NCBI GenBank assembly: GCA_052388135.1
Contig: JBQTIM010000069.1
Span: 4,290-68,289, forward strand
DNA length: 64,000 nt
Reading direction: 5' to 3'
DNA from: Elusimicrobiota bacterium
Lineage (GTDB): Bacteria > Elusimicrobiota > Elusimicrobia > FEN-1173
Part shown: positions 7,301 through 64,000 of the stretch, piece after piece
How positions within the stretch are numbered: the stretch's first letter is position 1
Layout of the letters: every line of letters starts with the position of its first letter
Translations under genes and position numbers: made by a program
Notes under the pieces: generated by a model
Database searches by the model: none
What the model saw: the letters and a program-made list of their open reading frames with translations, nothing else
Told to the model about the DNA's origin: nothing

Positions 7301-8419
7301 CGAAGACGAAAAGGACCGGGAGAAAATCAGGGTGTTCTGGGAGAAGGCCCGGGAGTTGCAGAAAGGATTTCAGGATATAGAACGGAGGGGCGCGCTGAAA
7401 GAGCAGCAGGGCGAGCTCTTAATGAAGCGATACCAAGAGTGGCAGTCCAATACCAACGCGTTGTCCAAGAGCGATCCCGATTACGAGGCCAAAAAGCGGA
7501 TGTTGGAGGAAGAGCTCCGAGCGATCGAGCGGGAAATCACCCGGCTGGAGCAGGAGGACAAGCGGCCGCGGATGCCGCCGCCCCCGTCTACATAGGGAAA
7601 CTTTCTTCCTGGCTGGAAAAACAGCGGTCCGGCGCCGCTCTCGCCCCCGGCTTGGCGGCGGAACTGCGGGCCATGAAAGGCCAAGGCCGCCACGCGGAAG
7701 TTTTCCAGCGCGTCATGGCCGACGTGGTGGAGGACACCGGCTTAAAAATCATGATCCCCGAGCCCGACGCCCGCGGCTTGGCCAACCTGGCCGCCGGCGC
7801 CGCGGCCAAACCCGAATGGATGAAGGCCAAGTCCGACCCGCAAACGCGCTACGTCCTCTGGGATGACGCCAAGGCCCGGCATGGCGAAGCCTATTTGAAA
7901 GAGCACGGCAGCCGGCCCGTGGAGGTGGAAGTGGAGGGCGGACGCCGGATCCAGGCCGCCTCCGATGCCTGGGGCCGCCCCTTGTCCAAGGACGTGGATC
8001 CCACCATGGTGGAAGGCGCGGGCGTCGTGTTCCGCGATCCCGCGAAGATGGGCTATTCCACCCGCATCGCCAACGAAGCCCTGCAATGGGCCAACGCCAA
8101 ACTGAAAGAGCTCGGCTACGGCGAGGTCTTTCCCCACGGCCCCGCCAATCAATTTTCCAGAGCCCAGTCGCTGGCATACCCTCAGATCGCCTACGAGTTG
8201 ACGCCCGAAGGCGCTCTCCGCCGCTACCGCATTTCCGACGAGCGGCAAGCCCAGGCTTTCTTCCACAAAGCCCGCCAGCCCGGCAGCCCCGCCTGGAATT
8301 GGCCCTCGGACCTGTCCGTCCACGCCCGCGAGGCCCTTCCGTCTATCCCCGCGGATTTCGAGAAGGCCGGCCGGCACACAGGCCGCACGTATCCTCCGCG
8401 GGCCGACGCAGGGAATTAG
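1316..8419 (+). CDS. giant uninterrupted ORF (2367 aa) encoding hypothetical protein(s) with no recognisable enzymatic motif. It is probably a composite: two internal stretches (about 4190–4640 and 7143–7595) code better in the +1 frame, the 4972–5177 repeat element sits in-frame, and 5200–5950 is low-GC.
   Basis: There is no stop codon in this frame for 7.1 kb. At the observed base composition about 2% of random codons would be stops, so a chance open frame is excluded. Third-position GC is high over most of the ORF (checked by eye at 1316–4100, 4640–4960 and 7600–8419). It drops to ~40–45% across 4190–4640 and 7150–7595, where the +1 frame shows the G1-A2-S3 coding periodicity. Confidence 0.5.
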   Translation: MAGTAKVFGRIASAVGNFFGRLFGRPAGVEAKPETIPAGVSPRESLSAPARTLTAEASRPVYADGRVYDQGRFSWDGEAWRLEGRGRALESGFNGIRAEDGGRLPVIVESSPQGIQAMGMDWEALEGRRLLVEKPTRLPGAGTVFAGSFDVKNGGFQFHEGSLYRSEGELHARFVTKQNGELAHFPARLEGDSFSLILTETKLSTGQTVAFAGSPLTGRIQDGRASLNAGPAAARVNLSDKFGRKAQGEVQVWLAEDGLKMRGLVSGQTSIPVSLVSGSPQAADSAAAGAAPSDLPAGRYRVMAEKAGHYFLEGEVAVAETGLAPFSVDTLFQMARGVGYRMGGVEFRQDDALPNQFFKLTRRVGIRAPEGGRMKDLSTGHETIFGPANEPLFFIKPDENGKKTVRSVQGQVLPAGVQTNARGEKELDVMLGPARLQVLLETQDDKTSYVSDSRWHAAGDTTAAHDGVNAAVGAMTFDVGRARKAAASLWNRAAEARAQGLSWKETADSLWQETKAGARQIWNEDMAGLRRTQRLAGLYLMRNGIGLFKAGVNFFGTKSIPYFQPVPVNLLRHVRLKGSSESVVDKAETFLGAVLHEADKKYVAARDQGNEEVGFYSLAERRGQFTAPQMLARGVGLGAEQLGQGFLTSFFGEALEEYRGMNLDEAVLKEINIGWGGMKELAKGAFTNSYKQAPTVVEATRQVTTSVGAIGLMAVVPGRGLARGYRAASRVTGIRRVASGLKTMAADSVLGAVDMVLPLPIGVDAGDMVRGVAGEYRAGRVRESLGLGTKDNIQVLTRDGRYVYLRVMGDDGASLPSLARLENLAQRAAEKNFVLDLEIAGGESVARQLEARPEYMAALSREGLARVGDYTNGLKSGAVNLRSAAVAEEMRFRSLSLKKETQFRLVDSELAAGRAREAKLKSLESQGNVRQTGAYLAEAKRNLSGWKRWKVGLAELRWRRAERSLQNLERRAQRIEGSLSDHARDGGHPQGAGVAPRTGLEGPGGARSAPSRAGQGLEGFEGTLRRGRAESAARERTSAARERTSAAREAAGAAKDTALRSLREEIQQVETRNGALEGQRSRLQDEIRIAHEGETSARGRAESLGREIKVYDGRLSWLQERARYLTEDPAGRRVYESALTLTPDFRGLSSARARRGAGDVSLDNFPLSPDAPHPHSAFQTVWKEFGRLAAAERGSFLIPERGILSALKDFLSSEKGQVPGAPPPALGDFSFARPKEKSPKGKDAPGGLRGLFWRRSDTPAPQRPIGAIGSDLPLRQTNPLRAPQGAPDVNDALPVDGFFARAMQSRHAEAFLKGEGNFAGRNAYITKASDLDGAETPIQIADRLKLTKKVGESIELSRDADTVIVFGYDTPTRAPPDLRVPTLEDGRSYPFTTGGAATGGGASQWLVGNGSVMDLQGKGFRVKEVYSVNESGVRLAWKTVANPDGTYSVTEKVLTPPKNSKATISSISFSKRFITSLSELFSSNAKTANSSGLMNRLESQTVPSTARSVRTKQDLSFQTFPWVHEAISAVSNAQGSGLVPFRSPLSSLKSFVARVFRKTAGEEGGPAVRSTGGADGLSLYLQGFSKELGEHRARSGGSSSSQSLSTVLEDFGRRLEDLTTSESAPARPRSDLTDPKSLELYLKGFASDIEKLTSDQQGKAMIPGDGPMDALNAYLARAFRKTDMGEGPAAPGLSASYLGQTQFPPSAAPSSRFDRSSNGFMTHKVPLQEGNLEVVLVPSKSAYSPLRSDAAPDAWDAPPVPGRDTSFRLEVKHGPDGDEIVLSRPGKGLASLEDAGIGRPVGPGRIRVQSRLEAFELIRKQESLSKNQLNGLLADLSRELEALAKNEEGKLGAGPDRSKPGLLNNESGRLSTDMLLAPVLAPWKAAKKIFWKSGEALERWLPETWRAAAAERRVGAQLDALVDFRLDLEKGGMGFEEIVSRYHEIAGSRLALDGGADGGALSGRLRGGSSPVEATGPRGGRISRWLAQLSEAIGARRRKGPGENQGVLGEGPGVAERISGYRTEGRAERAAGRALNEAIPRVAVQYQRVVQERSRLRGQKADVGGRAPSDRAGNHPAGAGGQAAADAAAPVYIGKLSSWLEKQRSGAALAPGLAAELRAMKGQGRHAEVFQRVMADVVEDTGLKIMIPEPDARGLANLAAGAAAKPEWMKAKSDPQTRYVLWDDAKARHGEAYLKEHGSRPVEVEVEGGRRIQAASDAWGRPLSKDVDPTMVEGAGVVFRDPAKMGYSTRIANEALQWANAKLKELGYGEVFPHGPANQFSRAQSLAYPQIAYELTPEGALRRYRISDERQAQAFFHKARQPGSPAWNWPSDLSVHAREALPSIPADFEKAGRHTGRTYPPRADAGN
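4113..4640 (+). CDS. nested +1-frame ORF encoding a K/E/Q/R-rich coiled-coil protein with an ARQEKEQ x3 tandem repeat and the C-terminal motif 'DSDPAYKTKYESLMKERQALEDELKALEGK'. It is either the C-terminal domain of an upstream protein reached by a +1 shift near ~4190, or an independent small gene (GTG start with GAGG 9 nt upstream).
   Basis: 175-aa ORF in the track. GC3 is ~72% in this frame against ~45% for the giant frame over the same bases. Codon position 1 is G-rich and position 2 is A-rich. It is paralogous to the C-terminus of the ORF at 7143–7595 (SDPxY…K(K/E)R..LE(E/D)EL(R/K)A(I/L)E). Confidence 0.45.
   Translation: MPIWRKLKEIFRGGSGGKSGSPSSGGVEPSEAYRILSDARKELKEAYQITQETAAIHRERELRLAQDLKDLEEQGQRQAELARDLKALREHFEEEGRKARQEKEQARQEKEQARQEKQQAQLKIQRYEALEKKYNKWKREMARLKDSDPAYKTKYESLMKERQALEDELKALEGK
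4407..4469 (+). repeat. 3 x 21-bp tandem repeat (gcgcggcaagagaaagaacaa), encoding (ARQEKEQ)3 in the +1-frame coiled-coil ORF
   Basis: Read directly; the third copy is degenerate. Confidence 0.7.
4972..5177. repeat. structured ~207-nt repeat element, copy 1, lying in-frame inside the giant ORF
   Basis: About 80% identical to 29924–30130. It has a 13-bp hairpin with conserved loop GCUYGUCC and two nested long-range helices, and each helix shows compensatory substitutions between the two copies. Confidence 0.6.
7143..7595 (+). CDS. nested +1-frame ORF encoding a coiled-coil protein ('…SKSDPDYEAKKRMLEEELRAIEREITRLEQEDKRPRMPPPPST'), a paralogue of the 4113–4640 product.
   Basis: Internal ATG at 7143 within track ORF 6909..7595. 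GC3 is ~78% in this frame, while the giant frame translates the same bases into G/R/A-rich low-complexity sequence. The ORF upstream of 7143 in this frame is R/W-rich junk. Confidence 0.45.
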   Translation: MKLLGADSLWTAERMAELYRDDYEAGLRRWRQLGRVAEEYHVGWLNYRKRLEREDEKDREKIRVFWEKARELQKGFQDIERRGALKEQQGELLMKRYQEWQSNTNALSKSDPDYEAKKRMLEEELRAIEREITRLEQEDKRPRMPPPPST

Positions 8420-10256: not shown

Positions 10257-10369
10257 TAAGGCCGCTTTGCGCCTTATGAAGTATGATCTGACGACCCGGC
10301 TGTAATGGGCGGACTTCTTTTTAAGCCCAGGCGACAGCCGAAAATTCGACCGTGCATGAGGGATGCGCC

Positions 10370-11515
10370 ATGAAAAAATTCAAGCGAGTGATGGTCTTTC
10401 TAAGCTTAATCGCTCTTGCCTCAGGCCCATTGTTCGCCGGCGTGCCCAACCGTATCGTTTATCAGGGGCGGCTGACGAAATCGGGCGTGAGCGTAAGCGG
10501 GGCGCACACGTTCCGGGCCCGGCTCATTTCTGCCGGCGGCGCGGAAATATGGAACAGCGGGGATCTGGCGCTCACCCTGCCGCCCTCCGGAGACTTCACT
10601 CTGGTCCTCTCCCCGTCCGGCGTCAATTGGATCAACGATGACCCCAAACTCGAAATCTCCGTGGACGGCGACATCCTCAATCCCTCCGACACCTTCGCCG
10701 CCAGCCCCTACGCCATCGTCGCCTCGACTGCCCAATACGCCTTTGCCGCGGCCAACGCCGCCAGCGCGGATGCCGTGGCGAACGGAAGCGTCAACGACAA
10801 TTCCATAGCGGCGGGCGCCGGCATCGCCCTCTCCAAGCTGTCGCCGGGCGCGTTCCCGGCGGGAACCTATTCTTACGCCGGATCCAACGTGGCCTTCGGC
10901 GGCCCCGGCGTTTGGGATGCCGCCGGGAATCTGGGCATCGGGACGTCGTCCCCGGAAAAAAAGCTGGATGTGCGGGGCGAGGCGCGGAGCACCGTGGGTG
11001 GGGTGAATTTCCATATGGTTCCGGTGGGGACGGTCATCGCCTATGCGGGGGCCACGCCCCCCGCCGGCTGGTTGTTTTGCAACGGCCAGGCCGTGAGCCG
11101 AACCACATACGCGTCTCTATTCGGTGCCATCGGGACAATCTATGGGGCCGGCGACGGGTCCACAACATTCAATGTGCCGGATCTGCGGGGGCGCGTGGCC
11201 GTGGGGAAGGACGATATGGGCGGGGGAGCCGCCGGCCGCATGACCGCTTATATCAACGGTTCAAGCCTAGGCGCGAGCGGGGGAAGCCAATCCCATGCTT
11301 TGTCTGTTAGTCAGCTGCCCAGCGGTCCCGGAGGCCTGTATGGATTCGTCCGCAGATCTCTGCCGGGTGAGAATGTCACGGTATCGGCTGCCGATACTGT
11401 CGGTTCTGGCACCCAAATTGATATCGTTTCTACGAACTTAATAGGGGGAGACCAGGCCCACACCAACACCCAGCCCGGCCTTATTTTGAACTACATCATT
11501 TGCGCCGGGCAGTAG
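10370..11515 (+). CDS. secreted protein with a C-terminal phage tail-collar (T4 gp12-like / MdpB-type) domain
   Basis: Signal peptide 'MKKFKRVMVFLSLIALASGPLFA'. The C-terminal region 'IAYAGATPPAGWLFCNGQAVSRTTYASLFGAIGTIYGAGDGSTTFNVPDLRGRVAVG…QSHALSVSQLP…GGDQAHTNTQPGLILNYIICA' matches the collar-domain consensus as I recall it. A GAGGGA RBS lies 8 nt upstream of the ATG. Confidence 0.6.
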   Translation: MKKFKRVMVFLSLIALASGPLFAGVPNRIVYQGRLTKSGVSVSGAHTFRARLISAGGAEIWNSGDLALTLPPSGDFTLVLSPSGVNWINDDPKLEISVDGDILNPSDTFAASPYAIVASTAQYAFAAANAASADAVANGSVNDNSIAAGAGIALSKLSPGAFPAGTYSYAGSNVAFGGPGVWDAAGNLGIGTSSPEKKLDVRGEARSTVGGVNFHMVPVGTVIAYAGATPPAGWLFCNGQAVSRTTYASLFGAIGTIYGAGDGSTTFNVPDLRGRVAVGKDDMGGGAAGRMTAYINGSSLGASGGSQSHALSVSQLPSGPGGLYGFVRRSLPGENVTVSAADTVGSGTQIDIVSTNLIGGDQAHTNTQPGLILNYIICAGQ

Positions 11516-15745: not shown

Positions 15746-15826
15746 CGTCATGCCGGCGAAAGCCGGTATCCAGATGAATGGAAAGTTTCTATAAGCTGGA
15801 CCCCGGCTTTCGCCGGGGTGACGGTT
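15746..15826. repeat. dispersed hairpin repeat, a double module: cgtcaTgccggcgaaagccggTAtcc … ggaCCccggctttcgccggGGtgacg. GNRA-loop stems form a larger inverted structure in the iscU–mnmA spacer.
   Basis: Related modules occur at 30528–30560 and inside the 38551–38680 element. Confidence 0.5.
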
Positions 15827-29923: not shown

Positions 29924-30130
29924 AGGGGCTCCACCCCTTCACCCGGCCATACTTTCTTTTTGCTTGTCCAAAAAGAAAGTATGGAGAAAGAAAAAGGACA
30001 CCCCGGTGGCCTGCGCGCGCCGTTTTCGCGGCGGCCCGACATTCCGGCCCCTCAACAGCCCATCGGGGCCATCAGGTCGGGCCTCCCGCTTCCGCGAAAA
30101 CGGCGTGCTCGAACCGCCACAGGGGCCCGA
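29924..30130. repeat. structured ~207-nt repeat element, copy 2, intergenic between rlmD and an AT-rich islet
   Basis: See copy 1. The P1 stem reads auacuuucuuuuu/aaaaagaaaguau here versus ugacuuuuccuuug/caaaggaaaaguca in copy 1. P2 reads cgccguuuucgcgg/ccgcgaaaacggcg versus ggcuguuuuggcgg/ccgccaaaacagcc. P3 reads ggcccgac/gucgggcc versus gguccgac/gucggacc. Confidence 0.6.
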
Positions 30131-30169
30131 AAGGCTTAGATTTGGACAATACAGCCGAATAATTCAAAA

Positions 30170-30553
30170 ATGAAAACTTTAAAAATAATCCTATTCCTTT
30201 TCATTCTCTTCGCAAGCGCATTCCTTGTTTTAGGATATGCCCTTACCCATGTGTTCATTGAAAAATATCCTTTATACATTTTTAGTGCTGTAGGCGCCTT
30301 TATGTCTGCTTTGGCTACTTCTTGTTTGGCTGTAATCGGATGGTTTGTAAGCAAAATTATAGGACGCTTTAATCGAGGATATGATGCTTTAGTTAAAAGC
30401 CAACCATTACAAAACGAATATCAATTAATGATTTCTGATAACGCGGCACTATTGGGAAAGTATGGCTGGGTCCAGGGGTGGAGCCCCTGGAAAACAAAAC
30501 TGAATTCTAAAACTTACTCCACCAGCTCTGGATACCGGCTTTCGCCGGTATGA
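30170..30553 (+). CDS. small hypothetical membrane protein (two TM helices) in an AT-rich (~38% GC) islet
   Basis: 127-aa ORF. Low-GC codon usage unlike the rest of the window. Its 3' end overlaps one arm of the dispersed hairpin element. Confidence 0.4.
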   Translation: MKTLKIILFLFILFASAFLVLGYALTHVFIEKYPLYIFSAVGAFMSALATSCLAVIGWFVSKIIGRFNRGYDALVKSQPLQNEYQLMISDNAALLGKYGWVQGWSPWKTKLNSKTYSTSSGYRLSPV

Positions 30554-30620
30554 CGGTCTATCGACCCGACAAAAAAGCGGTGAGATCCTTCGCGTTGCTC
30601 AGGATGACACGCAAATTTAA

Positions 30621-33600
30621 ATGAACCAACTTCAAACACAAACATCCAACGTCCTCCGCGTGAGCGGCCTCCCCGGCGGCGCCGAAGCCTGGTGGCTCTG
30701 GCGGGAGCGGGAAAATCTGGGGCGCGTCCTGGCGCTGACGCGGTCCGACGAGCGGGCCCAGGAGCTGGCGGAGGATTTCGAGGCGCTGGAGCGCTGGCAA
30801 GACCCGGGTTCGCCCGGCCGCGCGGCCTATTTTCCCGAGGAGGAGCCCGACCAGCAGGTGGCGGCGCTTTCCCGCTGGCTGCTGGGCTGGCCGGCGGGAG
30901 AGCTCACGTCGGCGCAGGCCGGCCGCCGGGAAACGGACGTCCCCTTGTTGGCGGCCGCCTGGCCCCTGGCCAAAGAGAGCCTGCCCGCGCCGGAGGAGTT
31001 CCGCCGGGCGCACCGCGACCTGCGCGTGGGGGAGCGTCTGGACCGCGGAGAATTGATCGCCCATCTGGCGCGCGCGGGCTACAGCCGCGTGGACGCCGTG
31101 GAGCAAAGCGGGGAGATGGCCGTGCGCGGCGAGGTCCTGGACCTGTGGTCGCCGGGCTGGGAGGTGCCCCTGCGCGCCCTTTGGCCCTTCGACCGCATCG
31201 AGTCCCTGCGCAAAATAGATTTGTCCACCCAGCGCTCGACGGACGCGGTGGACGCGGCCACGGTCCGCCCCGCGTCCCTGTCGGGTCCGTGGGCGGCGGG
31301 ACGCGCGACGCTCATGGATTATTTGGGCGGCGGCACGCTCTTCGCCTCCAACCTGCCCGAGGAGGGGCGTCCGGCGCGGGAGGGGAAAACCGTTTTGCGC
31401 GTGGAGCTGGGCGCCGCCGACCGGGAGGAGAAATTTTTGCCGCCGCCGGCCGCGCCGGGCCCGGCGGCCGCCGCGTTCTTCGCCGCCGAAATCAAGAAAT
31501 GGATGGAAGCCGGCTGGACGGCCGCGATCTTCTGCCACAACCCCGGCGAGCAGGAGCGCCTGGAGGAAATCCTCCTGGAGCAGGACCGGTCCCTGTCCGC
31601 CTTTTTCGAGGCCCGCCCGTCCGCCGGCCCCGACGGACGGGAGGCGCCCGCCCGCCGGCTGGACTTCCCCATCGGCAACCTCAACCGCGGATTTTTGGAT
31701 CCGGAAAACAAGCGGGCCGTGCTCTGCAACGCCCAGATTTTCGGCCGCGCGCGGCGGCGCCTCCGCCTGCCCAAGTTCATCGGCGGCAAGTCCCTGGCCG
31801 GCGTCTCGGACCTGGCCAAGGGCGATTACGTGGTGCACGAGCAGTTCGGCGTGGGCCGCTACACCGGCCTGCGCCGCGTGAAAGCCGCCGGTGTGGAGGC
31901 GGATTACCTCACGCTGGAATACAAGGGCGGCGACCGCGTGCGGGTGCCTCTCTTCGAGTTCAAGCAGGTGCAGAAGTTCGTGGGCGCCGAAGGGAAAAAG
32001 CCCAAGCTGTCCTCCCTGGACACGGCGGCGTGGGAGCGCGCCAAGGAGAAAGTGAAGGAGGAGGTGGCCGCCCTGGCGCGGGACCTGCTGGCGCGGGCCG
32101 CCAAGCGCGCCGCCTTGGCGGGCACGGCTTTCCCGCCGGATTCCCACATGGAAAAAGAGTTCGGCGATTCCTTCCTCTATGAGCTGACGCCGGACCAGGC
32201 CCGGGCCATCCGCGAGGTGAAGGCCGACATGGTGTCGCCCCGTCCCATGGACCGGCTGGTCTGCGGCGACGTGGGCTACGGCAAGACCGAGGTGGCCATG
32301 CGGGCGGCGTTCAAGGCCGCGTCGGCGGGCCGCCAGGTGGCGGTGCTGGTGCCCACCACCATTCTGGCGGAGCAGCACGGCCGCAACTTCCGCGAGCGGT
32401 TCGCCGACTACCCCATTTCCGTGGCGGTGCTGTCGCGCTTTTCCGCGCCGGCGGAGCAAAAGCGCATCGTGGCGGACCTGCGCCGCGGCGTGCTGGACAT
32501 CGTGGTGGGGACGCACCGCCTGCTCTCGCCCGACGTGGCGTTCAAGAACCTGGGCCTCATCATCGTGGACGAGGAGCACCGCTTCGGCGTGAAGCAGAAG
32601 GAGCGCCTGGCCGCCTTCCGCGACGTGGTGGACGTTCTGGCCCTGTCGGCCACGCCCATCCCGCGCACGCTGGGGTCCGCTCTCGGCGGCCTGAAGGCCA
32701 TGTCCCTCATCGAAAGCCCGCCCGAGGGCCGCCTGCCCATCGCCACCCACGTGGGCCCCTTCGACGAAGGCGTCGTGGCCGCGGCGCTGGAGCACGAGCT
32801 TCAGCGGGGCGGCCAGGTGTTTTACGTGCACAACCGGGTGGGCTCCCTGGACTCCCGCCGCCAGTGGCTGGAAGGCCTGCTGAAGGCGCGGGGCCTCCAG
32901 GCCAAGATCGGCGCCGCCCACGGACAGATGACCGGCGCCCAGCTGGAAAAAATCATGTGGGACTTTCTGCACAAGAAGCACGACATCCTGCTTTCCACCA
33001 GCATCATCGAGTCCGGCCTGGACATCCCGTCGGTGAACACGCTGGTGGTGGAGGAAGCGGAGGACTTCGGCCTCTCCCAGCTTTATCAACTGAGGGGCCG
33101 CGTGGGCCGCGAGCGGCAGAAGGCCTATTGCTATCTTTTCCACTCGGCCCGCACGCTGAGCGAAGACGCGGAAAAACGCCTGGGAGCCCTGCGCGAGTTC
33201 GCTTCCCTCGGCGCGGGGTTCAACTTGGCCCTGCGGGACTTGGAGATCCGCGGCGCCGGCAACCTTTTGGGCCCCCAACAGCACGGGTTCGTCAACGCGG
33301 TGGGCATCGCCCTCTACGGCCGGCTGCTTTCCGACGAGATCCGCCGCCAGAGGGACGGCGCCCCGGCCGACGACGCCGGCGCCGAGCCCGCCCTGGAGCT
33401 GCCCGTTTCCGCCTACCTGCCGGAAGATTACATGCCGTCGGAGGGGGACCGGGTGGCGTTTTACAAGCGGCTGTTGGACGCGCCGGCCTCCGGGCTCGAC
33501 GCCCTCCGCGCCGAATTGGAGGACCGCTGCGGACGCCTGCCCGCCCCCGCCGCCGCCCTTTTCGAGGTGGCCGAACTGCGCCACGCGGCGAAAAAGAAAA

Positions 33601-40301: not shown

Positions 40302-40611
40302 TTCTCCCCATTATACCGCTTGCGGTGGCCCTTGCCAAACGGCCCGCTTTGCGATAAAATCTTACCTCGCTGTAAATCCGCACACTTTCCGATTCCGCCC
40401 GGGGTCCCCGGTCAACGCCGGGGCCGGCCCTCCGTCAAGGAGGACCGCGGGAGGCGACGAGAGTGGAGGCCGCGCCGATGCCGGCGCGGAAAAAAACCGA
40501 ACGAGCGCACCGGCTCCGCGAGAAAAGCGGAAGCCCGACCGTGTTCTGTTTACAGCGGACGCCTACGCGGCGGCCGCTTTTTTTTATGAGCCCGGTGCCC
40601 AAGGAGACGAG

Positions 40612-41398: not shown

Positions 41399-42274
41399 AT
41401 GGCCGACATTTCTCCCGAACTCGTCCGCAAGCTCCGCGAAACCACCGGCGCGGGCATGATGGACTGCAAGCGCGCCCTGGAGGCCTCGAGCGGAGATTTC
41501 GACAAGGCCGTGAAGGTCTTGCGCGAAAAGGGCGCCGCCTCCGCCGCCAAGCGGGCCGGCCGCGCCACCGCCGCGGGCTGGGTGGCCTCGTGGATAGACC
41601 CCGCCGGAAAATCCGCCGTTCTTCTGGAGCTCAACTGCGAAACGGATTTCGTGGCCCGCACCGACGACTTCAAGGCCCTGGTGCAGGACCTGGTGCAGAA
41701 AGCCGGCACGGCCGCGCCGGAATGGTCCGGCCCCGCCGACGCGCCGCAGGACCGCCTCCGCGACCTGGCCGCCAAGCTGGGCGAGAACGTCTCCCTGCGC
41801 CGCTTCCAGCGCTACGGGTCCAACGGAGGCTCCGTCCTCCACTCTTCCTACATCCACCCCTCGGGCGGTTTGGGCTCGGTGGGCGTCCTCATCGAGCTGG
41901 CCGCCGACAAGGCCGAGGCCCTGCAATCCGCGGAGGCCAAGGCCCTCGCCAAGGATCTCGCCATGCAAGTGGCCGCCTCCAGCCCCCGCTGGGTGAGCCG
42001 GGAAGAAATCCCCGCCGACGTTTTGGAGCAGGAAAAATCCATCGCCCGCGAGCAGGCCCGGCGCGACAACAAGCCCGAAGCCATCTGGGACAAAATCGTC
42101 CAAGGCAAGGTCCAGCAGTTTTGCCGCCAGTTCTGCCTCCTGGAGCAGCCCTTCGTCAAGGACGAAAGCCAGAAAATGTCCGTGGGGCAGGTGGTGGAGC
42201 AGGTGTCCAAAAAAGTGGGCGCCGCCCTGGCCCCGAAGCGGTTCGTGCGCTACCGGGTGGGGGAGGAAGAATAG
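41399..42274 (+). CDS. tsf: elongation factor Ts
   Basis: 'LVRKLRETTGAGMMDCKRAL' UBA-like N-terminus. It follows rpsB. Confidence 0.9.
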   Translation: MADISPELVRKLRETTGAGMMDCKRALEASSGDFDKAVKVLREKGAASAAKRAGRATAAGWVASWIDPAGKSAVLLELNCETDFVARTDDFKALVQDLVQKAGTAAPEWSGPADAPQDRLRDLAAKLGENVSLRRFQRYGSNGGSVLHSSYIHPSGGLGSVGVLIELAADKAEALQSAEAKALAKDLAMQVAASSPRWVSREEIPADVLEQEKSIAREQARRDNKPEAIWDKIVQGKVQQFCRQFCLLEQPFVKDESQKMSVGQVVEQVSKKVGAALAPKRFVRYRVGEEE

Positions 42275-42283
42275 GGATGAACG

Positions 42284-42315
42284 GCGTGAATGGTGAATCG
42301 TGAACAGTGAATCGA
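42284..42315. repeat. GTGAAT-type heptamer repeat array (ggcgtgaatggtgaatcgtgaacagtgaatcg) in the tsf–pyrH spacer; a single arm
   Basis: Read from the sequence. Related inverted pairs lie at 43739–43844 and 60772–60871. Confidence 0.5.
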
Positions 42316-43113
42316 AACGTCCACGGCACGACCATCCATGTTAAACCGCCCCCATCCGCCGTTCGCTCTGCGCGATCCGCGCCTCGGCTCGTGAGCGCGC
42401 GCCGCGTCGTCCTCAAGCTGTCGGGCGAGGCCCTGGCCGGGGACGGCCGCTCGGGCATAGACCTGAAGTCTCTTTTCGAGATCGCCAAGGAATTGAAATC
42501 CGCCCGCGGCGCCGACCATCAAATCGCCGTGGTGGTGGGCGGCGGCAACATTTGGCGCGGCGCCCGCGGCCAGGGGCTGGAGCTGGACCGCACCATTTCC
42601 GACAACATGGGCATGCTGGCCACCCTGGTCAACGCCCTGGCCCTGCAGGACGCCCTGGAGCAGCTGGGCGTGCGCACCCGCGTTCTCTCGGCGCTGGAAA
42701 TCGCCAAGGTGGCCGAACCCTACATCCGGCGGCGCGCCATCCGCCATTTGGAAAAGGGCCGCGTGGTGATCTTCGCCGCCGGCACCGGCAGCCCCTATTT
42801 CTCCACGGACACCGCGGCGGCCCTGCGCGCCTCGGAGATCGAGGCCCACGTCATTTTAAAGGCCACCCAGGTGGACGGCGTCTACGATTCCGACCCGCGC
42901 AAAAACGCCAAGGCCAGGCGCTACACGGAGCTGTCCCACGGCGAGGCCTTGAGGAAGCGGCTGGGCGTCATGGACGCCACGGCCCTTTCCCTCTGCATGG
43001 AGAACCGCATCCCCATCCGCGTGTTCAACATGCACGCGCCGGGCAACATCCGCCGCGCCATCGCCGGCGGGAAGATCGGAACGCTGATCAAGCCGGACGA
43101 CAAGCAAGGGTAA
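42307..43113 (+). CDS. pyrH: UMP kinase. The true start is more likely the GTG at 42391, giving [15 protein letters not shown].
   Basis: '[12 protein letters not shown]' and '[11 protein letters not shown]'. Its 5' end overlaps a GTGAAT-repeat element. Confidence 0.85.
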
Positions 43114-43152
43114 CGCGCGCCGCGCGCCCTTAAGACGAGGAGAAGACTCTCT

Positions 43153-43728
43153 ATGATCTCCAGCCAGCCTCAAGTGCAAACCATCCTTCAGCAGGCGGAA
43201 GAGAAAATGAAAAAGGCCCTGGACGGCCTACGCCAGGAGTTTTCGGGCCTGCGCACGGGCCGCGCCTCGGCGGCCCTCCTGGACAACATCCGCGTGGAGA
43301 GCTACGGGTCCCACGTCCCCTTGAAGCAGGTGGCGGCGGTGGGCGTGCCGGACGGGCGGACGCTGGAGATCCGGCCCTGGGATGCGGGCACCCTGTCCGC
43401 CATCGAGAAGGCCATCCAGGCGTCGGACCTGGGCCTCACGCCGGCCAACGACGGCAAGATCATCCGCCTCTCCATCCCGTCCATGACCGAGGACCGGCGC
43501 CGCGACATGGCCCGCGTGGTCAAAAAGATCGCCGAGGATTTCCGCGTCTCCATCCGCAACGACCGCCGCGAGGCCATGGAGAAGATCAAGAAAGCCGAGA
43601 AGGACAAAGTCCTTTCCGAGGACCAGCGCAAGACCGCCGAGGAGGCCCTCCAGAAGCAGACGGACCTCTACGTGAAGAAGGTGGACGAAGCCGCCGCGGC
43701 CAAGGAAAAAGAATTGATGGAAGTTTGA
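43153..43728 (+). CDS. frr: ribosome recycling factor
   Basis: 191 aa with an RRF-like helical bundle pattern. 'LLDNIRVESYGSHVPLKQVAAV'. Confidence 0.9.
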   Translation: MISSQPQVQTILQQAEEKMKKALDGLRQEFSGLRTGRASAALLDNIRVESYGSHVPLKQVAAVGVPDGRTLEIRPWDAGTLSAIEKAIQASDLGLTPANDGKIIRLSIPSMTEDRRRDMARVVKKIAEDFRVSIRNDRREAMEKIKKAEKDKVLSEDQRKTAEEALQKQTDLYVKKVDEAAAAKEKELMEV

Positions 43729-43738
43729 GGGAGAAGAA

Positions 43739-43844
43739 CGGCGTGAATTGTGAACAGTGAATGGTGAATAGAAAAATCAAAACATCGGCTTGGCTCCGGC
43801 TTTTGGACTTTCCCGTTCACTATTCACGATTCACCATTCACGCC
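43739..43844. repeat. inverted pair of GTGAAT-type heptamer arrays (about 32 nt each) separated by ~42 nt, in the frr–uppS spacer
   Basis: Arm 1 is ggcgtgaattgtgaacagtgaatggtgaatag. Arm 2 is cgttcactattcacgattcaccattcacgcc, whose reverse complement is ggcgtgaatggtgaatcgtgaatagtgaacg. Confidence 0.55.
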
Positions 43845-43861: not shown

Positions 43862-44611
43862 ATGAGCCGCGCCGCCGCGCCGGCGCCCGCCGCCTCCAAA
43901 GACGACGATCTCCTCCGCCGCATCGACCGCAACCGGCTGCCGCGGCACATCGCCGTCATCATGGACGGCAACGGCCGCTGGGCCAAGAAGAAGGGCTGGC
44001 CGAGGCTTCTGGGGCACAAGGCCGGCGCCGAGAGCGTGCGGGAGGCCGTGCGCGTCTGCGGCGAGCTGGGCGTGGAGGCGCTGACCCTCTACGCGTTCTC
44101 CACGGAAAATTGGCTGAGGCCCGCCGCCGAGGTGAAGGGCCTCATGAGCCTCCTGGTGCGCACCCTGCGGCGGGAGACGGCGGAACTGGACAAGAACAAC
44201 GTGCGCCTGCGCGCCATCGGCCGCCTGGCGGCCCTGCCGGCGGAGGTGCGGGCCGAGCTGAACCGCGCCGCGGGGGCGCTGAAGGGCAACTCGGGCCTGA
44301 TCCTCAACCTGGCCCTCAACTACGGCGGCCGCCAGGAAATCGTGGATTCCGTTCAGGCGCTTCTGGCCGCCGGCGCCAAGACGGTGGACGAGGCGGCCAT
44401 CAGCCGACATCTCTACACCGCCGGCCTGCCGGACCCGGACCTGCTCATCCGCACGTCGGGCGAGCGCCGGCTTTCCAATTTTCTCCTCTGGCAGTCGGCC
44501 TACGCCGAGATCTACATTTCGCCCGTTCTCTGGCCGGATTTCCGCCGCCGGCACATCTACGAAGCCGTGCTGGACTACCAGTCCCGCGAGCGCCGGTTCG
44601 GCGGACTCTAA
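43862..44611 (+). CDS. uppS: undecaprenyl diphosphate synthase (cis-prenyltransferase)
   Basis: 'HIAVIMDGNGRWA' and 'LTLYAFSTENWLRP'. The 5' part of the track ORF overlaps a repeat element. Confidence 0.9.
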   Translation: MSRAAAPAPAASKDDDLLRRIDRNRLPRHIAVIMDGNGRWAKKKGWPRLLGHKAGAESVREAVRVCGELGVEALTLYAFSTENWLRPAAEVKGLMSLLVRTLRRETAELDKNNVRLRAIGRLAALPAEVRAELNRAAGALKGNSGLILNLALNYGGRQEIVDSVQALLAAGAKTVDEAAISRHLYTAGLPDPDLLIRTSGERRLSNFLLWQSAYAEIYISPVLWPDFRRRHIYEAVLDYQSRERRFGGL

Positions 44612-44760
44612 AGGCAATGATGTGTGAAGGCAATGATGAAGGATGAATTAAGAATGATGAAAAAAACCGAATGGGCGCCGCTGAATTATGAACGGTAAAT
44701 TTATGAGAAAAACAGCCCGCCTGTTTTCATCCTTCATCCTTCATCATTCATCATTCTAAA
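44596..44760. repeat. inverted pair of ATGAAGGATGA-type short repeats in the uppS–cdsA spacer
   Basis: '…gaaggcaatgatgaaggatgaattaagaatgatgaaaaaaac…' pairs with '…gttttcatccttcatccttcatcattcatcattc…'. Confidence 0.45.
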
Positions 44761-44761
44761 T

Positions 44762-45610
44762 ATGGTGCTCCCCCGCCTTCTCACCGCGCTGGCCGCGGCG
44801 CCTATTTTTCTTTGGGTCCTTCATCTGGGCGGGCCGCCTTTCGCGGTCTTCATGTTCTTTCTCGTCTTGCTGGCGGCCTGGGAGTTCCACCTCATGGCGG
44901 AGGAAGGCGGCTACGCCGGCCAATCGTGGTGGGGCGTGGCGGCCGCCGGCCTGGTGGCCCTCGCCCTGATTTTTCCGGGCCTGCGGCCGGACATGGCTCT
45001 GCCGCGGCAGGCGCCCGCCCTGGCGGTGGCGTCGGCGATTTTCGTTCTCTTCGCGCGCGAGCTGGCGCGGGGGGACAAGAGCCTTTCCATGCTGAGGCTG
45101 GGCACGTCGTTGAGCGGACTGTTCCTCGTGGCTTGGCCGCTGGGCCATCTGATCTTGCTGAGGGACCTGCGGGGGCCGGGAGATCTTTTCCAGGTGGGGC
45201 GGGGAGCGGCGTTCTTCCTGGTGCTGTTGATCTGGGCCCAGGACGTGGCGGCCTGGGCGGCGGGCCGCGCCCTGGGGCGGCATCGCCTGGCGCCGCAGGT
45301 GAGCCCGGGCAAGACCTGGGAAGGCGGCGCGGCGGGCCTGGCGGCGGCGGTCCTGGCGGGCCTGGCGGCGCGCGAGTTTTTTCTGGCGGGAGCGTTCTCG
45401 CGGGGCGAGGCGGCGGCCCTGGCGGCGGTCTTGGGCGTGCTGGCCCAGTTTTCAGATTTGGCCGAATCCCTGATGAAGCGCTGTTTCGGCGTCAAGGATT
45501 CCTCCCAGCTCCTGCCCGGCCACGGCGGCGTTCTGGACCGTTTCGACTCGTTCCTTTTCTCGGCCCCTTTCCTTTATTTTTATTTGATCATCACCGGCCG
45601 GGCGGGATAG
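44762..45610 (+). CDS. cdsA: phosphatidate cytidylyltransferase
   Basis: 'SPGKTWEG' and 'GHGGVLDRFDS'. Confidence 0.85.
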   Translation: MVLPRLLTALAAAPIFLWVLHLGGPPFAVFMFFLVLLAAWEFHLMAEEGGYAGQSWWGVAAAGLVALALIFPGLRPDMALPRQAPALAVASAIFVLFARELARGDKSLSMLRLGTSLSGLFLVAWPLGHLILLRDLRGPGDLFQVGRGAAFFLVLLIWAQDVAAWAAGRALGRHRLAPQVSPGKTWEGGAAGLAAAVLAGLAAREFFLAGAFSRGEAAALAAVLGVLAQFSDLAESLMKRCFGVKDSSQLLPGHGGVLDRFDSFLFSAPFLYFYLIITGRAG

Positions 45611-49782: not shown

Positions 49783-49946
49783 TTCCCGCCCTCCGTTCCT
49801 CCGCCGGACCCCCGACGGAACTCCGCCTGTTTTGGTTACAAAGATGTTACATCAAATTTACAAAAACTTAATGCGGCCTTAAGGCGTCCGGAATAGACTA
49901 GTCATAGGCCGAAGGAAGCATCGCTTCAAATTCGTCAATCGGCCGC

Positions 49947-49980
49947 CCCTTTAAAGCCGCCCGCCCCCCCGGGCGGCTTT
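49947..49980 (+). terminator. intrinsic terminator: 8-bp perfect GC stem gccgcccg/cgggcggc, 6-nt C loop, then T8
   Basis: Read directly from 'gccgcccgcccccccgggcggctttttttt', ~165 nt after the proS stop. Confidence 0.7.
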
Positions 49981-50015
49981 TTTTTGCCCGCCGATGCCCG
50001 TGGGCGAGATTTTGC

Positions 50016-60011: not shown

Positions 60012-60075
60012 CGAATCCCCCGGTCGGATCGCGGGATTCGACGTAAAATCCGGGGCTTTTTCCTTCACGAAAAAG
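60012..60075 (+). terminator. tandem hairpins after the OMP gene: cgaatccc…gggattcg, then gcttttt…aaaaagc
   Basis: Inverted repeats read from the sequence. The T-tract is weak (only 'cttttt'). Confidence 0.3.
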
Positions 60076-60180
60076 CTCGACCGTAGTCCGGGTTACGCTC
60101 TCACTTTTTCGTTTCGTAAAAAACCCCCGTCTTTTCCGTCTCGGTCCTCGCGCCCGACCGGGGAACCCGGGTAACCGCTC

Positions 60181-60265
60181 TTGACCCGGGAGCGGCGACT
60201 GTGGTAAGATAAAACCCGTCGCCGCTCCTCCCGAGAAAGTGGCTGCCGTTCGAGCCACTTTTTTT
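60181..60265 (+). promoter_or_regulatory. promoter candidate (TTGACC, 18 nt, TAAGAT) followed in the leader by the hairpin gtggctgccgttcgagccac plus T7 (60239–60265), all upstream of rimP. This is a leader terminator/attenuator-like arrangement.
   Basis: Hexamers and spacing read directly. The hairpin plus U-run lies between the -10 element and the rimP RBS (GGAGG 7 nt before ATG 60301). Confidence 0.45.
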
Positions 60266-60300
60266 GTTTCCAGCCGGGGCGGCGAAAGCGGAGGCCGCCC

Positions 60301-60792
60301 ATGGGCGTCGCGCAAGATTTGGAGAACCTCGCCCGGCCCTCTTTGGAGCAGGCCGGCCTGGAGTTGGTGGACGTGGAATACCGCCGCGAGCCGCAGGGCT
60401 GGGTGTTGCGCTTCTACTTGGACAAACCCGGCGGATTCTCGCTGACGGACTGCGAGGAATGGAACGACCGCCTGGGCCGCGCGGTGGACGAAAGCGGACT
60501 CATCCCCCACGGGTATTCGCTGGAAGTGTCGTCCCCCGGGCTGAACCGGCCCTTGAAGAAGCCGGAGGATTTCCGCCGGTTCCTGGGCGTGGAGGCCGTG
60601 ATCAAGCTTTTCGCCGCCCGCGCCGGCCAGAAAAATTTTCACGGGCGCCTGGCGGCCCTGGAGGGGGAAGAACTGGTCCTGGACGACCGCACCTCCGGCC
60701 GCGTCCGCCTGCCGCTGGCGGAGATCGCCAGCGCGCGACTGGACCCGGAGATAGATTTTAATAAAGAGAGAGGCGTGAACAGCGAATCGTGA
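60301..60792 (+). CDS. rimP: ribosome maturation factor RimP
   Basis: 163 aa with a DUF150-like pattern. 'LELVDVEY…LRFYLDKPGG…LEVSSPGLNRPL'. It immediately precedes nusA. Confidence 0.8.
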   Translation: MGVAQDLENLARPSLEQAGLELVDVEYRREPQGWVLRFYLDKPGGFSLTDCEEWNDRLGRAVDESGLIPHGYSLEVSSPGLNRPLKKPEDFRRFLGVEAVIKLFAARAGQKNFHGRLAALEGEELVLDDRTSGRVRLPLAEIASARLDPEIDFNKERGVNSES

Positions 60793-60871
60793 CGGTGAAT
60801 AGGAAGAACCAAAGCATGCGAACAGTTGCTTTCGCCGTTCCCCTTCACCATTCACGATTCACCATTCACGC
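60772..60871. repeat. inverted pair of GTGAAT-type heptamer arrays in the rimP–nusA spacer. Arm 1 overlaps the last rimP codons.
   Basis: Arm 1 is ggcgtgaacagcgaatcgtgacggtgaatagg. Arm 2 is ccccttcaccattcacgattcaccattcacgcc. Confidence 0.55.
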
Positions 60872-60886
60872 CGTTTAAAGGAAATT

Positions 60887-62341
60887 ATGGCTCAACAAAC
60901 CAAAAGCGACTTATTGCCGGTCCTGGAGCAGATCGAGCGCGACAAGGGCCTCAAAAAAGAGGACATCCTGCACATGATCGAGCAGGCCCTGGTGTCGGCT
61001 TACCGCAAGCACGCCGGCCAGCAGGTCAACGTGGAAGCGACCATCGACGCCGAGTCGGGCCAGATCAAGGCTTTCGTCGTGAAAACCGTGGTGGAGCAGG
61101 TGGCGGACCCGGCCCTGGAAATGTCCGTGGCCGAAGCCAAAAAATTCAAGCCCGGCGCCGAGGCGGGGACCGAGATCAAGATCCCCGTGGACCCCGAGGA
61201 GTTCGCCCGCATCGCCGCCCAGACCGCCAAGCAGGTGCTGGTGCAGAAGATCCGCGAGACCGAGCGCGAAAGCCTCTACGGGGAATACAAGCCCCGCGAG
61301 GGCGTGCTCATCAACGGCGCGGTGCATCGTTTCTCCAGCCGCAACGTCATCGTGGACCTGGGCCGCGCCGAAGGCATTTTGCCCGTGCGCGAGCAGGTGC
61401 GCCGCGAGCGCTGGATGGTGGGCGACCGCATCCGCGCCCTCATCCTCAAGGTGGAAAAAGGCCCCCGCGGCCCCGAGATCATTTTGTCCCGGGCCCACGC
61501 CGACTTCGTCAAGCGCCTCTTCGAGCAGGAAGTTCCCGAAATTTACGAAAAGACCGTGGAGGTGGTGGAGGTGGTGCGCGAGCCCGGCCTCCGCTCCAAG
61601 GTCGTGGTGCGGAGCAACAATCCCAAGGTGGACCCCATCGGCGCCTGCGTGGGCGTGAAGGGCTCCCGCGTGCGGCCCATCATCAACGAGCTGCAGGGCG
61701 AGCGCATTGATTTGGTGTCCTATTCCCAGGACGCTTCCGCTTACATCTCCTCCGCCCTGTCGCCGGCCAAGCCGTCGTCGGTGTCCATCGTCAGCCTGGA
61801 GGAGAAAAAGGCCGACGTCGTGGTGCCCGACGACCAGCTCTCGCTGGCCATCGGCAAGGGCGGCCAGAACGTGCGCCTGGCGGCGAAGCTCACGGGCTGG
61901 CACATCGACGTCCACTCCGAGTCGCAGAAGCGCGAGTCCGCCCAAGCCGCGGCCGCCGCCCTGTTGTCGGGGCTGGGGCAATTGGAAGGCGTGGGGCCCA
62001 AAACCTCCGAAATTTTGCAGAAGGGCGGCTGGGGCGACGTGAACCGCCTGGCCGAGGCCAAACCCGAGGACCTGACCCATCTGTCGGGCATCGGCGAGAA
62101 GACGGCGGAAAAGATCATCGAGTCGGCCAAGAATTACCTGGCCGCCCGCGCCGCGCGGGAGGCCGAAGAAGCCGCCGCTGAGGCCGCACCCGCCGAGGAG
62201 GCGTCCCCCGAGGCCGAAGCGGAACCCGCCGCCGCGGACGAAAGCGCGGCGCCCGCCGAGGAATCTCCCGCCGAGCCGGAAGCGGAAGCGCCGGCGGAGC
62301 CGTCCGGCGGCGAACCCGCTCCCGAACCGGAAAAGGAATAA
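60887..62341 (+). CDS. nusA: transcription termination/antitermination factor NusA (with an acidic C-terminal extension)
   Basis: N-terminal domain, S1 and KH modules ('[15 protein letters not shown]', '[20 protein letters not shown]') and an HhH region. Confidence 0.9.

Positions 62342-64000
<1,659 letters not shown>

Follow-up and report, generated by a model that had tools for sequence, protein, structure and literature searches.

Short near-tandem repeats lie between genes of translation-related operons in a 64,000-nt stretch of an Elusimicrobiota genome (contig JBQTIM010000069.1; 65% G+C; the whole stretch is referred to as the window), and they raise the question of what kind of element they represent and whether the operons make use of them. 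The initial annotation described arrays after tsf, after frr, between uppS and cdsA and between rimP and nusA, and proposed that they act as transcription attenuators or terminators, as operator arrays for a repeat-binding regulator, or as mRNA processing or stability elements. Motif counts and Tandem Repeats Finder located the arrays at these sites. They belong to four elements, designated as E1–E4, which within the window are indeed confined to short spacers of two co-directional, translation-related transcription units, rpsB–proS and rimP–nusA–infB. We consider it somewhat probable (roughly 55%) that E1–E4 are dispersed palindromic repeats resembling repetitive extragenic palindromic (REP) sequences and bacterial interspersed mosaic elements (BIMEs), with arms that consist of heptanucleotide simple-sequence arrays of the class called short tandemly repeated repetitive (STRR) sequences or long simple-sequence repeats (LSSRs). 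They would be copies of two families, A and B, of non-coding palindromic elements of ~100–125 nt, which change fast, are strain-specific and behave like REP doublets forming hairpins (REPINs).

Anatomy of the four elements

The unit of E1, E2 and E3 (type A) is GTGAAY followed by one variable nucleotide, and that of E4 (type B) is GATGAAK; the arms are listed in Table 1. With at most one mismatch allowed, the two-unit motif GTGAAYNGTGAAY has 13 matches versus 0.42 expected, a count reached in 0 of 100 shuffles, and all 13 fall inside E1–E3, while the type-B motif GATGAANGATGAA has four matches (0.25 expected), all in E4. Every arm has a period of 7 or 14 in Tandem Repeats Finder, with 3.7–4.4 copies and 77–95% matches. 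Type A, which occupies three spacers of the window and is thus a mainly intergenic, multi-locus repeat, keeps the same pattern at the variable position (G, C, A) at its three loci, and E1, E2 and E3 have a 12–13-nt outer end (RAACGGCGTGAAT) in common. The arrays lie 9–12 nt from stop codons and 6–17 nt from start codons; for example, E1 begins 9 nt past the tsf stop codon, E2 ends 17 nt 5′ of the uppS ATG, and the right arm of E4 stops 6 nt short of the cdsA ATG. The start codons follow the antisense arm, nusA retaining its own AAGGA, and each sense-strand unit of type A or B contains TGA. Growth of the arrays from overlapping GTGA/ATGA stop/start junctions finds no support in the window on account of these distances.

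The architecture of the individual elements differs in several points from the first description. The array after tsf is present, but it is not a single arm: a degenerate right arm follows it, of which the sister strain, 97–98% identical in protein sequence to the window (loci L150/L151 and L688/L689; L-numbers denote fetched loci), retains a clearer version, GTTCACAATTCGC. Judged from this alignment, E1 is a decayed inverted pair with no true single arm. The inverted pair after frr was described correctly, except that the stem continues into the supposed ~42-nt loop and closes with a 7-nt terminal loop. The same architecture recurs between rimP and nusA, as noted, but E3 is not purely intergenic, given that rimP ends at a TGA within the left arm and has an array-encoded C-terminus (…NKERGVNSES, of which GVNSES stems from the array). 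The GTT TAA directly behind the right arm is apparently the ancestral end of rimP. The repeat unit between uppS and cdsA is different, as reported, but it is the heptamer GATGAAK (Tandem Repeats Finder period 7, 95% matches) and not an 11-mer.

These arrays matter for annotation, where they yield false extensions of open reading frames (ORFs; pyrH, uppS and, in L150, cdsA) and can supply a real stop codon (rimP). As had been suspected, the long pyrH and uppS ORFs (from 42307 and 43790, respectively) result from read-through and are artefacts; the true starts are at ~42391 and 43862. In the sister strain, the public cdsA gene call of L150 (start 7308) falls inside the E4 element, versus the start at 44762 in the window, and is an array-caused artefact. 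A small ORF within the inner part of E4 (44654–44698, encoding MMKKTEWAPLNYER; sister-strain counterpart MMKESEWASLDRNGGL) is probably no gene, because the changes between the strains look neither synonymous nor conservative.

Three of the elements are predicted to form strong hairpins. E2 folds at −55.7 kcal/mol (z −6.6 relative to shuffled sequences; range for the whole hairpin −47.8 to −55.7 kcal/mol, z −6.6 to −7.9), E3 at −49.1 kcal/mol (z −7.5) and E4 at −45.0 kcal/mol (z −4.2); the fold of E1 in the window is not significant (z −0.59).

Turnover in relatives and wider distribution

We compared the corresponding operon in eight related contigs. In L152/L153, whose UppS is 81% identical, tsf, pyrH, frr, uppS and cdsA abut or overlap, with spacers of 0–21 nt and no elements, and L156 and L158 have short plain spacers in the same operon. 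L154 (80%) carries a GGGGCCN-type inverted pair in the frr|uppS spacer, GTTCCNN and ACTCGGC arrays at uppS|cdsA, which do not pair with each other (z −0.35), and further heptamer arrays at rseP|proS and beyond. L157 (75%) has pairs of GTGGGAR units at uppS|cdsA, of GTGGCRA units at moeA|tatA and of GTGAAT-type units at ispB|moeA, and L155 has a different palindromic element at frr|uppS. Neither heptamer arrays nor paired arrays were found in L152, L155, L156, L158 and L691. Heptamer arrays are thus either numerous in a lineage or absent from it, and the same junctions are struck repeatedly. Given these element-free and differently occupied relatives, the elements are not ancestral to the operon.

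The heptamer arrays of the relatives lie at 3661–3745, 4475–4574, 7860–7894 and 10215–10244 in L154 and at 3323–3435, 4652–4741 and 10738–10829 in L157. The heptamer families seen there are GGGGCCN, GTTCCNN, ACTCGGC, CACTTCC, GTGGCRA and GTGGGAR, often arranged as inverted pairs and often in the same operon spacers as in the window or in neighbouring ones.

Turnover is also seen between the window and its sister strain, whose flanks are nearly identical. In L150, E2 has a decayed left arm and folds no better than shuffled sequences (z −0.73, versus −6.6 in the window); the same holds for sister-strain E1, E2 and E4 together (z −0.7 to −1.9). In E1 the two strains are about one unit apart, and they also have different E4 loops. 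At rimP|nusA, L688/L689 (RimP 97% identical, upstream flank near-identical) have a type-B hairpin of four GGATGAA units and then five TTCATCN units (−38.7 kcal/mol, z −5.9) in place of the type-A element E3. Accordingly, RimP of the sister strain ends in …PEIKIKDEG from this other element, whereas element-free relatives have …DFKKEV; the rimP|nusA spacer measures 12–15 nt in relatives with 74% and 69% identity. Two unrelated elements at one site in near-identical strains point to insertion, replacement or allelic exchange and not to slippage in place. Unit number also varies at one locus elsewhere, with eight units in L124 and five in L125.

Taken together, these observations suggest how REP/BIME-like repeats with heptamer arms would arise and persist. 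New units may be born by replication slippage, inverted pairs may be formed or repaired by intrastrand template switching, and whole elements may be copied or exchanged between loci. Since neither E2 nor E3 is bounded by a visible target-site duplication, a single-strand (REPIN-like) route or recombination is likelier than cut-and-paste. The elements would persist just past the stop codons of co-directional genes: the TGA in every sense unit closes all three frames, so that an array should be harmless to genes and tolerated after stops. In the operon mRNA, the elements are predicted to fold into stems of −38 to −56 kcal/mol that lack U-tracts. Such stems would break translational coupling and could block 3′ exonucleases or serve as an RNase III site, and the ratio of upstream to downstream products may be shifted. 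Any effect on expression would act through the mRNA hairpin and would be incidental and evolutionarily transient, and not a conserved control.

Several points weigh against this explanation. The inner parts of E2 and E3 are alike at 10 of 22 positions, which is not significant (permutation p 0.12); we therefore dropped the idea that their loops are homologous, and the common descent of whole elements rests on arms and ends. No strain-level pair of an empty and a filled site, and no target-site duplication, was found that would prove insertion. An old allelic polymorphism that recombination has spread could explain the A/B difference at one site, and the repeated occupation of frr|uppS, uppS|cdsA and rimP|nusA could reflect selection for a hairpin and not mere tolerance. 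Finally, copies in the host strain were surveyed within the 64-kb window, and dispersal in the whole genome is an extrapolation.

To place the arrays in a wider context, one genome per species (596 Gb) was scanned for three successive GTGAAY+N units, which yielded at least 120 loci. Since ~140 matches to this pattern are calculated to occur by chance, only arrays of at least four units and inverted pairs count as evidence. Among the matches listed, many loci have 4–19 units, and there are eight strict inverted pairs versus two well-separated direct partners. The inverted pairs among them occur in Pyrinomonadaceae, Armatimonadota, Petroclostridium, Prevotellaceae, Planctomycetota, Geobacter and Chitinophagaceae. 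Arrays of at least four units and pairs are found in Acidobacteriota, Armatimonadota, Bacillota, Bacteroidota, Planctomycetota and Geobacter. GTGAAY arrays of the various phyla lie chiefly in intergenic DNA and in some cases within an antisense ORF, a result that approximates the genome-wide census suggested with the initial annotation. Carriers in culture include Methylotuvimicrobium buryatense 5G (NZ_KB455575.1, ~2,347,655–2,347,723; 10 units), Mesorhizobium sp. L-8-3 (NZ_AP023262.1, ~8,348,514–8,348,645; 19 units), Petroclostridium sp. X23 (NZ_CP124862.1, ~2,294,353–2,294,519; an inverted pair) and Terrimonas ferruginea DSM 30193. The exact 23-mer common to E1, E2 and E3 occurs at 28 metagenome loci with 41–69% G+C, mostly directly past a stop codon, as single arms or pairs (e.g., sucB|lpdA).

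Within 1.11 Mb of fetched DNA, 385 arrays with period 7 and more than 130 different units were counted, versus 25–36 for periods 5, 6 and 8. TGA/TCA was the most enriched trinucleotide in heptamer units without GTGAA (75 of 145, versus 38 expected from permuted units; z 7.1). A viral-contig control did not reveal specificity for GTGAAY or for period 7: (GTGAAYN)x3 gave at least 120 matches, (GAGTAYN)x3 97 and (GGATAYN)x3 85, and GTGAAY gave 108 at period 8 and at least 120 at period 6. We thus make no claim that the GTGAAY hexamer is privileged. Single arrays between co-directional ORFs were in sense orientation in 21 cases and in antisense orientation in nine, a count confounded by ORF calling because a sense array ends any ORF, while an antisense array is absorbed into ORFs called from the most upstream start (33 cases). 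In L138/L140 (~1036–1062 in L140), an ATTCACN array with all frames open is apparently in frame with the N-terminal part of an ORF for an ABC-transporter ATPase (…PFTIHDSPFTPLTPFTNSQEEFWALNDVSFEI…), so antisense-oriented arrays can enter coding sequence.

Competing explanations

The main rival holds that the hairpins are selected post-transcriptional elements, namely RNase III sites, 3′-exonuclease barriers or translation uncouplers, which would step expression down from tsf, frr and rimP to the following genes (uppS, cdsA). Effects of this kind at the mRNA level are known for REP elements in E. coli. Very stable stems internal to inferred transcription units are what such a role predicts, and so are the different hairpin-forming elements that the same junctions hold in the window, L154, L155 and L157 and the strong hairpin kept at rimP|nusA in both sister strains despite a wholly different sequence. 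However, relatives have the same operon with overlapping genes and no hairpin, three sister-strain elements fold no better than shuffled sequences, and the L154 arrays at uppS|cdsA are unpaired. Comparison of the two strands revealed no sense-strand folding advantage, the antisense strand of E3 folding more strongly (−63.5 kcal/mol) than the sense strand (−47.9 kcal/mol), and hence gave no support for selection at the RNA level. Neither conservation nor covariation that would evidence selection on the hairpin RNA was found. We regard selected hairpins as unlikely on this balance. Processing or stability is nevertheless the sole one of the three originally proposed roles that the anatomy allows, because long hairpins sit inside polycistronic mRNA.

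A broader and quite improbable alternative is that heptamer-array hairpins form a distinct intergenic class found across phyla, written or moved by an unrecognised activity specific to lineage and to period 7 and kept as operon "punctuation", that is, a pad of stops in all frames (one TGA per unit) followed by a hairpin. A mobilising enzyme might be responsible, or else some property of replication or repair. The exchange of A for B at one site, the genomes with many arrays or none, the period-7 excess and the TGA/TCA enrichment would all fit this explanation.

Purely local simple-sequence expansion, in which 7-nt seeds slip in place with neither copying between loci nor function, seems to us still less probable. 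It would account for heptamers as the dominant period, for the high diversity of units within one genome and for the differences in unit number between strains, and heptanucleotides were the most abundant long simple-sequence repeats according to Mrazek et al. (2007), as far as that study is summarised in PMC4679880. It does not account for the unit, variable-position pattern and outer end that three loci of the window share, for an unrelated element at the same site in a 97%-identical strain, or for the excess of inverted over direct partners among the matches listed.

We give similarly little credence to arrays of binding sites for a protein that recognises the repeat in DNA, single-stranded DNA or RNA and governs a lineage-specific global regulon; a cold-shock, S1 or KH type protein or an IHF/HU-type protein would be a candidate. 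Conservation of six of the seven unit positions with the seventh free is as in such arrays, lineages have many arrays or none (see also PMC2700814; PMC4679880), and heptamer arrays were reported in a preprint to have modest reporter effects in Nostoc (bioRxiv 10.1101/2022.06.06.494920). On the other hand, many heptamers coexist in one genome and would need many binders, the unit family at one site changes between strains, no candidate protein was identified, and a 7-bp spacing would, by our own reasoning, be awkward for a binder of duplex DNA. An operator role also appears unlikely from the sequence comparison, because the arrays are absent or replaced in relatives with the same operon and differ between strains of 97–98% identity.

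Intrinsic terminators or attenuators that halt transcription between genes are very improbable: the stems are strong and lie past stop codons, but none is followed by a U-tract (the tails are CCTTCGCT, CGTTTAAA and TCTAAATA), the terminator scan has no match at any element, canonical U-tract terminators are used elsewhere in the same organism (after proS and, at 60235–60266, in the rimP leader), and the essential downstream genes uppS, cdsA, dxr, nusA and infB would be left without a promoter-like site of their own in these spacers, where the promoter scan found none except a weak one 5′ of frr.

The regulatory interpretation as a whole is only partly supported. The evidence lends no support to conserved attenuators or operators, and elements that are missing, replaced or decayed in relatives or in the sister strain speak against a dedicated regulatory device.

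Genomic context and known systems

The elements, the genes that flank them and the signals that delimit their transcription units are compiled in Table 1. The genes dxr, rseP, proS and, later, infB were also identified in the window with NCBIfam and Pfam. The nearest homologues of UppS and RimP are likewise labelled as Elusimicrobiota in their source records. The promoter-like site 5′ of rpsB and the terminator 3′ of proS are the inferred start and end of the unit holding E1, E2 and E4. With the promoter-like and terminator sites taken into account, these three elements lie inside one transcription unit and E3 inside another. A promoter-like TTGACC…TAAGAT followed by a hairpin with T7 (GAAAGTGGCTGCCGTTCGAGCCACTTTTTTTG) precedes rimP (60178–60266) and, by analogy, looks like a leader attenuator of the rimP–nusA–infB operon, whose counterpart in E. 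coli is NusA-autoregulated.

Table 1. Arms and inner part of E1–E4, neighboring genes and transcription signals (positions numbered within the window)
Feature	Positions	Strand	Basis or remark
E1 left arm, type A: GGC then GTGAAT-G, GTGAAT-C, GTGAAC-A, GTGAAT	42283..42312	+	
E1 degenerate right-arm remnant (CCGCCGTTCGCTCTGCG)	~42356..42372	-	alignment with sister strain L150
E2 left arm, type A, 4 heptamers	43740..43769	+	inverted repeat I1
E2 inner part, partly self-complementary	43770..43814	.	folding; stem extended to 7-nt terminal loop
E2 right arm, type A (GTGAAY on minus strand)	43815..43844	-	inverted repeat I1
E3 left arm, type A	60772..60800	+	last 6 codons and TGA stop (60790–60792) of rimP from arm
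E3 right arm, type A	60843..60872	-	GTT TAA directly after, 60873–60878
E4 left arm, type B (GATGAAK; regularity below that of right arm)	44632..44663	+	inverted repeat I4: 32 nt, 84% complementary
E4 right arm, type B (TTCATCN, 4.4 copies, 95% matches)	44724..44755	-	Tandem Repeats Finder, I4
tsf	41399..42274	+	NCBIfam TIGR00116, E 1e-73; stop codon 42272–42274
pyrH (true start ~42391)	42391..43113	+	NCBIfam TIGR02075; 240-aa gene call in L150
frr	43153..43728	+	NCBIfam TIGR00496; stop codon 43726–43728
uppS (ATG 43862)	43862..44611	+	NCBIfam; 249-aa homologue with 98% identity
cdsA	44762..45610	+	NCBIfam/Pfam confirmation
rimP	60301..60792	+	Pfam RimP_N, RimP_C
nusA	60887..62341	+	Pfam NusA_N, KH_5
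Promoter-like site 5′ of rpsB, TTGCCA-17-TAAAAT	40332..40360	+	promoter scan
Canonical hairpin + T8 terminator 3′ of proS	49941..49988	+	inverted-repeat search (I12), terminator check

Other repeats and anomalous regions of the window were recorded. An imperfect inverted repeat at 60045–60134 (41-nt arms, 71% complementary, no heptamers) lies between a gene ending at 60009 and the rimP promoter region. Another, at 15746–15823 beside an mnmA-like gene (28-nt arms, 86% complementary), has its own GCCGGCGAAAGCCGG-type hairpin in each arm and is a different kind of palindromic element than E1–E4. The 27-nt imperfect tandem repeats at 62643–62895, Pro/Ala-rich in coding, are an ordinary IF2 low-complexity region in the N-terminal part of infB. 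An A+T-rich island at 30128–30656 (below 40% G+C, versus 65% for the genome), between a tRNA methyltransferase-like gene and mfd, is probably acquired DNA; its 127-aa ORF (30170–30553, third-position G+C 0.37) has no Pfam match. Positions 1316–8419 and 10352–11515 were recorded for a 2367-aa ORF with no Pfam domain and the genes behind it. The ORF has several low-G+C patches and a perfect 21-nt tandem repeat (4405–4462, 2.8 copies); next come a DUF2079 membrane protein and a protein with a phage tail collar domain.

Several known classes were compared and set aside. Miniature inverted-repeat transposable elements have inverted ends like those seen here, but there is no target-site duplication and no related insertion sequence in the window. 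A BLAST search of E2 against plasmids gave no match. Nor do the elements belong to a curated RNA family: an Rfam 15 scan of 39–47 kb at a permissive E-value returned only chance-level microRNA matches (at most 26 bits, versus gathering scores of at least 67). The class of intrinsic terminators was rejected for want of a U-tract directly after any stem. CRP half-sites, DnaA boxes, parS half-sites, attC core sites, recombination signal sequence heptamers and the 16S 3′ tail were considered, and none fits a direct 7-nt periodicity.

Like REP, BIME and REPIN sequences, the elements are short palindromic extragenic repeats past stop codons within operons, with inverted doublets, long hairpins, strain variability at a site and no target-site duplication; the REP group also has known effects on mRNA stability. 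A REP unit, however, is in itself an imperfect palindrome that has GTAG on its 5′ side, and it is linked to a REP-associated tyrosine transposase (RAYT), whereas the arms of E elements are direct heptamer arrays; no GTAG stands beside any arm, and no RAYT or transposase domain was found in 30 large ORFs of the window.

STRR sequences were reportedly described in cyanobacteria by Mazel and colleagues in 1990. Like these and LSSRs, the E elements consist of tandem 7-nt units, mostly intergenic and at many loci, with several unit families and variable copy number; at least three head-to-tail 7-nt copies are present at several loci, and unit number varies between close strains. STRR sequences and LSSRs are described as plain direct arrays, so that hairpin doublets and replacement at the same site fall outside that description.

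TAACTGA arrays occur inside translation operons of marine Beggiatoaceae, cyanobacteria and Bacteroidetes, where they provide stops in all forward frames (MacGregor 2015; PMC4679880). They share with the E elements the heptamer arrays (2–6 units) in translation-related operons, the patchy phylogeny and the all-frame stops that limit overlap with the 3′ end of a gene to a few codons (PMC4679880). Nearly all of them, however, are single direct arrays directly 5′ of start codons, with one inverted set only (PMC4679880), whereas three of the four elements described here are inverted pairs just past the stop codon of the upstream gene, and none is a forward array near a start codon that replaces the ribosome-binding site.

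A close parallel is found in Geobacter metallireducens, in which a 2009 annotation listed tandem 7–9-mers paired on opposite strands as putative global regulator sites; these paired sites (classes 1–3) are multi-copy there and absent from G. sulfurreducens (Aklujkar et al. 2009; PMC2700814). They have in common with E2–E4 the 3–5 tandem units of 7–9 nt, the two opposite-strand sites and the variable gap (PMC2700814), and both groups are intergenic or intra-operon (in Geobacter, e.g., proB–proA), multi-copy and absent from a close relative. By these features, E2, E3 and E4 are species-specific paired sites of the G. metallireducens type. The Geobacter units are different (MTYCTGA, GTTGCTYN and TCTCCGTS), IHF/HU-like binding was inferred there, and the analysis of hairpins and turnover is particular to the present study (PMC2700814).

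Reports of heptanucleotide arrays go back to 1990 and concern cyanobacteria, Geobacter, Beggiatoaceae and other bacteria. The present study adds the phylum Elusimicrobiota, two unit families and evidence that doublets, the hairpin form, are common in different phyla. It also offers a natural comparison in near-identical strains, which have different elements at one junction and an intact versus a decayed hairpin at another, so that a direct transcript-mapping test of the effect of the hairpin on operon expression is possible.

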